NCBI RefSeq assembly: GCF_003334255.1
Contig: NZ_QOWU01000186.1
Source: Escherichia coli
GTDB taxonomy: Bacteria > Pseudomonadota > Gammaproteobacteria > Enterobacterales > Enterobacteriaceae
Direction: 5' to 3' (one strand)
Length of the DNA: 800 nucleotides
The translations under genes and the position numbers were made by a program. This document shows positions 1 to 800 of this stretch, piece by piece. Every line of letters starts with the position of its first letter. Within the stretch, counting starts at the first letter, position 1. A model generated the notes under the pieces. It did no database searches. It was not told the DNA's origin and saw only the letters and a list, made by a program, of their open reading frames with translations.

Positions 1-800
1 CAGGTCTCGCCCAGCGTGGTGTTCACAAAGGTTTTCAGGCCGTTGGGATCTTTCAGTGCATCCAGCCAGTCATAGACAATCTGTACCCAGGTGGTGAACG
101 GACTGTACGCCGTCCAGATATGGAATGTGATGGAGCGCGGCGGCGGAATTTCATTATCCGCGGCGCTGAAAAACGTCAGACCGTCGCGGGTCCACATCCC
201 CGTGTTTTCACAGATCCACCGCCCGTTGCTCTGGTCCAGTTCAGACTGATGGATCACGCAGCCATGATGTTCACAGAGGTAGAAAACACTTTCGGGACTG
301 TCCTTCTCCCATTTAAGGCCAAAAGGCGTGGACTCATCGCCAAATTTCAGATACTGCTCCTCCCCACAGTGCGGGCAGGGCACATAAAAACGCATGAAAT
401 GTGCCGACTCGTTGGCCGCTTTTTCGATCTGGCAGGAGCCTTTTATTTTTGGCGTCGAGCCGCGAATGGATTTTGGCCATACCGAGCCCTCAATACGCTT
501 ATCCCCCAGCAGGGTTGGCGAGCCCTCTTTTTCGACATCCGGCTCGAATGAGGAAAGTTCGTCATAGCAGACCACATCCACTGATTTTTCACGGTAGTTT
601 TTGGCGGCAGCGCCGCCCAGGCACCAGAAGCCCACACCCGATGAAAAGCGTTTCAGCGTGATGGTATTATCACGATGTTTACGTCCCAGCCAGGGAGAAA
701 GTTTTTTCAGGCAGGGAACATCGCGAATCGTCGCCTCCACGTGAGACTTCATAAAATCTTCAGCGGCAGAATCCGTGGGCTGAAAAAGCAGACTGTTTCG
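1..800 (-). CDS. A: Phage terminase large subunit, lambda gpA family (DNA-packaging ATPase region); internal fragment, 5' and 3' ends both outside the window
   Basis: Seen in sequence: the minus-strand frame with codons at plus coordinates 798-800 down to 3-5 has no stop codon across 266 codons, while the other two minus frames have 16 and 10 stops. From memory: the translation aligns with lambda gpA over blocks such as FMKxHVExTIRD, HRDNTxTxKRF, GFWCLGG, AKNYREKSVDV, YDEL, EGSPTxLGDKRIEGSVWPKSIRGSTPK, HFMRF, CPHCGEEQYLKFGD, TPFGLKW, VFYLCEH, TFHIWTAYSPFTTWVQIV and KTFVNTTLGET. The start codon lies beyond position 800 and the stop beyond position 1. Confidence 0.95.
258..377 (-). other. Cys4 cluster C-x2-C-x30-C-x4-C (CPHC ... 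CEHHGC), candidate zinc-ribbon-like metal site inside the terminase
   Basis: Read directly from the translation: Cys codons at 375-377 and 366-368 (CPHC) and at 273-275 and 258-260 (CEHHGC), with His at 369-371, 267-269 and 264-266. The equivalent lambda segment as I recall it is CPHC ... CEHNAC, so the four cysteines appear conserved. Metal binding is inferred, not shown. Confidence 0.5.
453..461 (-). other. Candidate ATPase coupling motif (C-motif) G-S-T
   Basis: Minus-strand codons 459-461, 456-458 and 453-455 encode G-S-T inside the block EGSVWPKSIRGSTPK, which matches lambda gpA by recollection. Terminase large subunits carry a short Ser/Thr-rich coupling motif downstream of Walker B; the assignment is by position and family knowledge only. 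Confidence 0.4.
558..581 (-). other. Walker B-like motif with adjacent catalytic glutamate of the packaging ATPase (VDVVCYDE)
   Basis: Minus-strand codons 579-581 through 558-560 translate to V-D-V-V-C-Y-D-E, a hydrophobic stretch ending in Asp-Glu. By recollection it corresponds to the lambda gpA Walker B region (VDVAGYDE, catalytic Glu about residue 179). The motif is read directly; the functional assignment is from recalled literature. Confidence 0.6.

Follow-up and report, generated by a model that had tools for sequence, protein, structure and literature searches.

An 800-nt Escherichia coli sequence internal to a cos-type terminase large-subunit gene of the lambda gpA/phage 21 gp2 family

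An open minus-strand frame and its identity

The window, that is, the whole 800-nt stretch of Escherichia coli DNA analysed here, is occupied on its minus strand by a single frame that runs from base 800 to base 3 through 266 codons with zero stops, and window bases 2-1 supply the initial two bases of terminase codon 365. Between 3 and 16 stops were found in each of the remaining five frames. A stop-free minus-strand frame through the whole window, as claimed in a preliminary description made from the letters only, was recovered exactly. Among 5000 mononucleotide shuffles of the window, 0 fully open frames appeared, the longest open run having a mean of 104 and a maximum of 247 codons; analytically, the probability of 266 sense codons in a row at 53% G+C is 9.4e-6 in a single frame and 5.6e-5 across all six.

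The frame is absent from the ORF list because the lister, which was used with its default 60-aa cut-off, omits ORFs reaching past either source end. Its output at this cut-off consists of 120-551(+) (143 aa), 401-661(+) (86 aa) and 443-637(-) (64 aa), in agreement with the earlier remark that three short ORFs were listed and none of them in the true frame. An end-to-end open frame thus deserves the first check, since a lister that drops ORFs extending past the ends misses the gene in any window located entirely within a long CDS.

To characterize the substitutions in this frame, the window was compared with its counterparts in phage 21 and lambda. Nucleotide differences at codon positions 1/2/3 amounted to 15/6/67 against phage 21 and 60/42/146 against lambda, and the dN/dS values (Nei-Gojobori) were 0.072 and 0.084, respectively. 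The third-position differences and the low dN/dS therefore indicate strong purifying selection on the minus-strand frame, and the window is protein-coding DNA selected in exactly this frame.

Protein and profile searches assigned the translation to the large terminases. All 266 residues aligned gap-free and with the same numbering to residues 99-364 of lambda gpA (NP_040581.1), 190 of them being identical (71%, E 9e-150), which is the full-length, high-scoring alignment that the preliminary description had predicted. PHROG 15 (phrog_15), terminase large subunit, was matched at 6.5e-152, and in addition to the Pfam GpA_ATPase match (Table 1) the opening 48 positions of the Pfam model GpA_nuclease (PF20454) were matched by fragment residues 225-266 (bases 3-128, 2.5e-09). 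Lambda gpA, GpA_ATPase and PHROG 15 thus agree on the gpA-like terminase that had been proposed for the minus strand. An NCBIfam scan of the fragment returned zero families, and phmmer of the fragment against PDB sequences matched no chain, the latter fitting the structure of lambda gpA being still unknown (PMC9410871).

The match to phage 21 gp2 (UMO75417.1; gene 2 of M81255/OL657228) was closer, with 94% identity over gp2 residues 99-364 without gaps and, at the DNA level, 89% across the window. Lambda reaches only 69% at the nucleotide level, with dS saturated at ~2.6, and is missing from the near (megablast) search because of this low DNA identity. Judged by these identities, phage 21 gp2, and not lambda gpA, is the nearest of the characterised homologues. 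Beyond the window, the full protein shares with gp2 the length of 642 aa and the C-terminal tail ...LSGGVNGYSR, and its surroundings share the flanking gene order and cosN with those of gp2. The prohead-binding C-terminal end, in which the protein differs from lambda gpA, likewise resembles phage 21 instead.

Table 1. Features of the terminase fragment in the 800-nt window
Feature	Position	Strand	Basis or remark
TerL (gpA/gp2-type) coding sequence, internal fragment	3..800	-	residues 99-364 of 642-aa protein; stop-free frame, 100% identity record
Pfam GpA_ATPase PF05876 match	216..794	-	fragment residues 3-195, model 59-247 of 247, i-Evalue 8.9e-40
Walker B + catalytic glutamate, V174-V-C-Y-D178-E179	558..575	-	sequence reading; PMC6379665 Table 1
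Walker B-to-coupling (C) motif segment E190-T214	453..527	-	G191, T194, G212-S213-T214 identical to lambda
Cys4 beta-hairpin insert (zinc-ribbon-like), residues ~233-281	252..398	-	between coupling motif and lid
Proposed ATPase lid subdomain W327-D342-T364	3..116	-	limits from PMC6379665 Table 1; overlaps GpA_nuclease start

ATPase motifs, predicted fold and a four-cysteine insert

In describing the ATPase motifs, we used lambda numbering, which applies gap-free here, and took the assignments from Ortiz et al. 2018 (PMC6379665, Table 1); conservation was counted among 111 full-length representatives, each 31-72% identical to the window segment. The lambda Walker B motif with the catalytic glutamate is VAGYD-E179 (PMC6379665), whereas VVCYD is read at Walker B here, and D178 is retained in 110/111 and E179 in 111/111 family members. 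At the end of the segment leading from Walker B to the coupling motif, the GST coupling motif itself (G212-S213-T214) takes up bases 453-461(-). Family conservation was 108/111 for G191, 98/111 for G212, 95/111 for S213, 105/111 for T214 and 107/111 for P215, and in lambda the mutations T194M and G212S lower the packaging velocity 3- to 10-fold (PMC5737356). The lid residues W327, D342 and T364 are identical across lambda, phage 21 and the window protein. Identity to lambda gpA thus extends over D178, E179, G191, T194, G212-S-T214, a four-cysteine (Cys4) pattern described below, and the three lid residues. Taken as a whole, the ATPase profile, the collinearity with gpA, Walker B with its glutamate, the coupling motif and the lid residues, by which a GpA-type TerL is recognised, were all found in the fragment.

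The deviant Walker A motif, KSARVGY(S/T) at residues 76-83, lies outside the window; it reads KSARVGYS (76-83) in lambda and KSARVGYT in the full gene of a record that is 100% identical to the window. The nuclease acidic residues D401, D465 and D590 are present in the same full gene and are invariant among 105 family members. On these motif assignments, the window carries the second half of the ATPase centre together with the lid, and not the P-loop. The term "ATPase region" used in the preliminary description consequently has to be narrowed: it holds for Walker B with E179, the coupling motif and the lid, which are inside the window, and not for Walker A and the small-subunit-binding N-terminus, which are outside.

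The fold was evaluated with an AlphaFold2 model built from a 105-sequence alignment, which had a mean pLDDT of 94.0 and values of 92-98 over residues 99-364. All of the top 20 Foldseek matches in the PDB were phage large terminases (T4 gp17, Sf6 gp2, HK97, D6E, PhiV-1, T7 and P74-26), with E from 5.6e-10 to 9.8e-05 and a probability of 1.00 each, and RecA-type ATPases ranked next. The predicted full-length fold of the window protein is that of an ASCE ATPase plus an RNase H-like nuclease, of the large-terminase type. In this two-domain arrangement of ATPase and nuclease, and in its predicted fold, the protein resembles the solved terminases (T4 gp17, Sf6 gp2, HK97 TerL, P74-26 TerL and D6E), whereas sequence identity to them is just 8-15%, undetectable by PDB sequence search, and the full-length superpositions are loose, with TM values of 0.22-0.35 (query-length normalised).

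The Cys4 segment is an insert made up of two knuckles, C240-P-H-C243 (bases 366-377) and C274-E-H-H-G-C279 (bases 258-275), and beta-hairpins stand beside both of them in the models (pLDDT 92-98). C240 and C243 show no variation in the family, and 110/111 members retain C274; the pattern CxxC...Cx(1-5)C was found in 108/113 sequences, the remaining 5 being spacing variants, and it is identical in lambda gpA. When the family profile was searched against the PDB, the sole sequence matches were zinc ribbons on this segment, namely 1qyp, an RNA polymerase II subunit (E 0.005), and the ribosomal protein L44e (E 0.018), both matching weakly; over the same segment the profile matched none of the solved terminases. 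Some family members also match the Pfam TFIIB and TFIIS zinc-ribbon models at the insert, and fold searches with the isolated insert gave nothing significant. The insert is probably a structural zinc site. A more specific proposal, that it is a structural zinc ribbon peculiar to gpA-type cos terminases and possibly engaged in DNA gripping or subunit contacts, is put forward tentatively and is, in our estimate, rather unlikely to hold in full. The full-text literature searched did not describe any zinc finger or ribbon in gpA, so that the Cys4 element appears to be a conserved, apparently undiscussed feature in the heavily studied lambda terminase ATPase domain, for which there is no experimental structure.

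Prophage context and alternative readings

The segment 4361174-4361973 of NZ_CP027340.1 (E. coli 2015C-3121 chromosome) is 100% identical to the window and falls within CDS WP_042200580.1, a 642-aa "phage terminase large subunit family protein". The ORF in this record is intact, has the same length as phage 21 gp2, and 41% of the gene is covered by the window. Gene completeness rests on the identical record, because the window itself is without Walker A and nearly all of the nuclease domain.

At the identical locus, a Q antiterminator, a holin, a lysozyme and an Rz-like lysis protein lie upstream of the packaging genes, in which the small terminase is followed by the large terminase, the stop of the former overlapping the start of the latter by 29 nt (locus L001). 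The head genes (W-like head-tail joining, portal, S49 protease, decoration, major capsid, FI and FII-like) and the tail genes (Z/U/V-like, G, T, tape measure, M and L) are also present. The cosN 12-mer GGGCGGCGACCT, identical in lambda and phage 21, was located upstream of the small-subunit gene at a distance of ~195 bp. What flanks the identical segment is therefore a complete packaging, head and tail module of a lambdoid prophage in lambda order, and the earlier placement of the window in a lambdoid phage or prophage packaging module is borne out by this order and by the lambda cosN. The window thus flags such a module, and its importance beyond correct annotation is small.

A gene for a SASA-family carbohydrate esterase (660 aa, L001 5246-7228) was observed after the Q antiterminator gene and before the lysis genes. 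Cargo (moron) genes of lambdoid phages are often situated at this Q-to-lysis position.

Related sequence was detected in 2047/5426 complete E. coli genomes (~38%), at 1-5 places per genome with a median of 2. The nearest phage GenBank records are PhiR12_1 to _5, with 99.4% nucleotide and 100% amino acid identity over the window, for which K-12 MG1655 or E. coli C is given as the host. With the full protein as phmmer query against a set of 1.84 billion cluster representatives, the GpA family comprised 8202 hits at E <= 0.001, of which 2325 reached E <= 1e-30, and GpA-family terminases occur in phages of many hosts, Wolbachia and Rhodobacter among them. The large terminase in the window is an annotated member of a thoroughly studied family and its identification is already known; with the gene annotated in RefSeq and so frequent among E. 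coli genomes, the statement that this is a known gene family and not a novel system stands.

We are therefore close to certain that the window is an internal, minus-strand part of a cos-type large terminase gene of the lambda gpA/phage 21 gp2 family in an E. coli lambdoid prophage, a reading that none of the results contradicts. It is the open frame, the homology, the motif conservation, the purifying selection, the gene context and the fold that carry this reading, and by homology with the lambda enzyme, ATP-dependent translocation and cos cleavage would be its enzymatic activities. The one indirect sign of such activity is that phages recorded on laboratory E. coli hosts encode the identical protein segment. 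Together with the small subunit, TerL would form a holoenzyme and bind concatemeric phage DNA at cos, and the C-terminal RNase H-like nuclease, encoded outside the window, would nick cosN. TerL would then dock on the portal, and the N-terminal ASCE ATPase would pump DNA into the prohead. In this scheme, the Walker B aspartate would bind Mg2+ and Glu179 would activate water for ATP hydrolysis, the loop-helix-loop of residues 190-214 with the GST motif would couple hydrolysis to movement and set the translocation velocity, and the lid subdomain is expected to move upon ATP binding, closing over the nucleotide.

Three other readings were weighed against this one. The fragment could come from a decaying prophage remnant and represent a terminase pseudogene, as defective prophages are common in E. 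coli, the window covers less than half of the gene, and with several matches in many genomes some copies are likely cryptic. However, the 642-aa ORF of the identical record is intact and sits among a full set of lysis, packaging, head and tail genes, the dN/dS of 0.07 is accompanied by retention of every catalytic residue, and isolated phages share the same protein sequence over the window; a pseudogene is thus very improbable.

Even less credible, to a degree that is nearly negligible, is that one of the listed short ORFs, chiefly the 143-aa ORF, is a real or overlapping antisense gene. Both the window and phage 21 keep this ORF open, and one promoter-like site lies at 641-670(+). The lambda counterpart of the 143-aa frame, however, is interrupted by an internal stop and lacks an ATG, and 2-3 stops break the 86-aa ORF in both lambda and phage 21. 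The substitutions track the minus-strand codon phase, and the plus strand is unannotated in every matched record. The promoter scan was itself at chance level, with 1 site found against 0.5 +/- 0.8 expected. The short ORFs on both strands were accordingly rejected as genes and regarded as shadow ORFs, interrupted in homologues.

The terminase could also have been captured by an element other than a phage, for example a phage-inducible island or a gene transfer agent. The very wide spread of GpA-family terminases over 8202 representative clusters would agree with this, but the reading is just as nearly negligible, because at the identical locus Q, holin, lysozyme and Rz are followed by the whole of the lambda head and tail gene order.

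Inspection of the window for minor sequence features found one 12-nt direct repeat in two copies; inverted and tandem repeats were also sought in the window and none was found. Three weak terminator-like hairpins, at 403-416(+), 511-526(+) and 194-177(-), were observed against 0.8 +/- 0.8 expected from shuffles. They consist of 5-6 bp stems followed by T-runs, all lie within the CDS, and they are probably incidental and were not considered functional. An Rfam scan at E <= 1 produced a single match, DicF at 589-618(+), which scored 20.2 bits where the gathering score is 48, had an E of 0.09 and was taken as chance.

Small subunit, cosB-like repeats and packaging specificity

Variation in packaging specificity among lambdoid phages is a known phenomenon, and several differences bearing on it were observed outside the window. 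In the small terminase (L001 11226-11735), the Pfam Phage_Nu1 match is limited to residues 49-150; overall identity to Nu1 is 34%, and only the C-terminal two-thirds are shared. Its N-terminal ~48 residues show no relation to those of lambda or phage 21, and full-length relatives were found in PhiR12 phages only. The corresponding N-terminal part of lambda Nu1 is DNA-binding. The first ~45 residues of the large subunit (L001 11707-11850) are likewise unlike those of lambda and of phage 21, and it is in this N-terminal stretch of the full protein, in the N-terminal part of the partner small subunit and in the cosB-like repeats that the otherwise very similar phage 21 system departs from the one described here.

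In the cos region (L001 11031-11192), the ~45 bases after cosN GGGCGGCGACCT match those of lambda and phage 21 exactly or almost exactly. Downstream of cosN, the cosB-like region has its own repeats, CATGTCCGGTT / AACCGGACATG, with copies at L001 11080 (CATGTCCGGTTT), at 11138 and 11168 (AACCGGACATG, inverted twice) and at 11175 (CATGACCGGTTT), a layout reminiscent of the R3/R2/R1 sites. Sequence comparison of the small-subunit N-terminus, the large-subunit N-terminus and the cosB-like repeats suggests that the packaging specificity differs from that of lambda and of phage 21.
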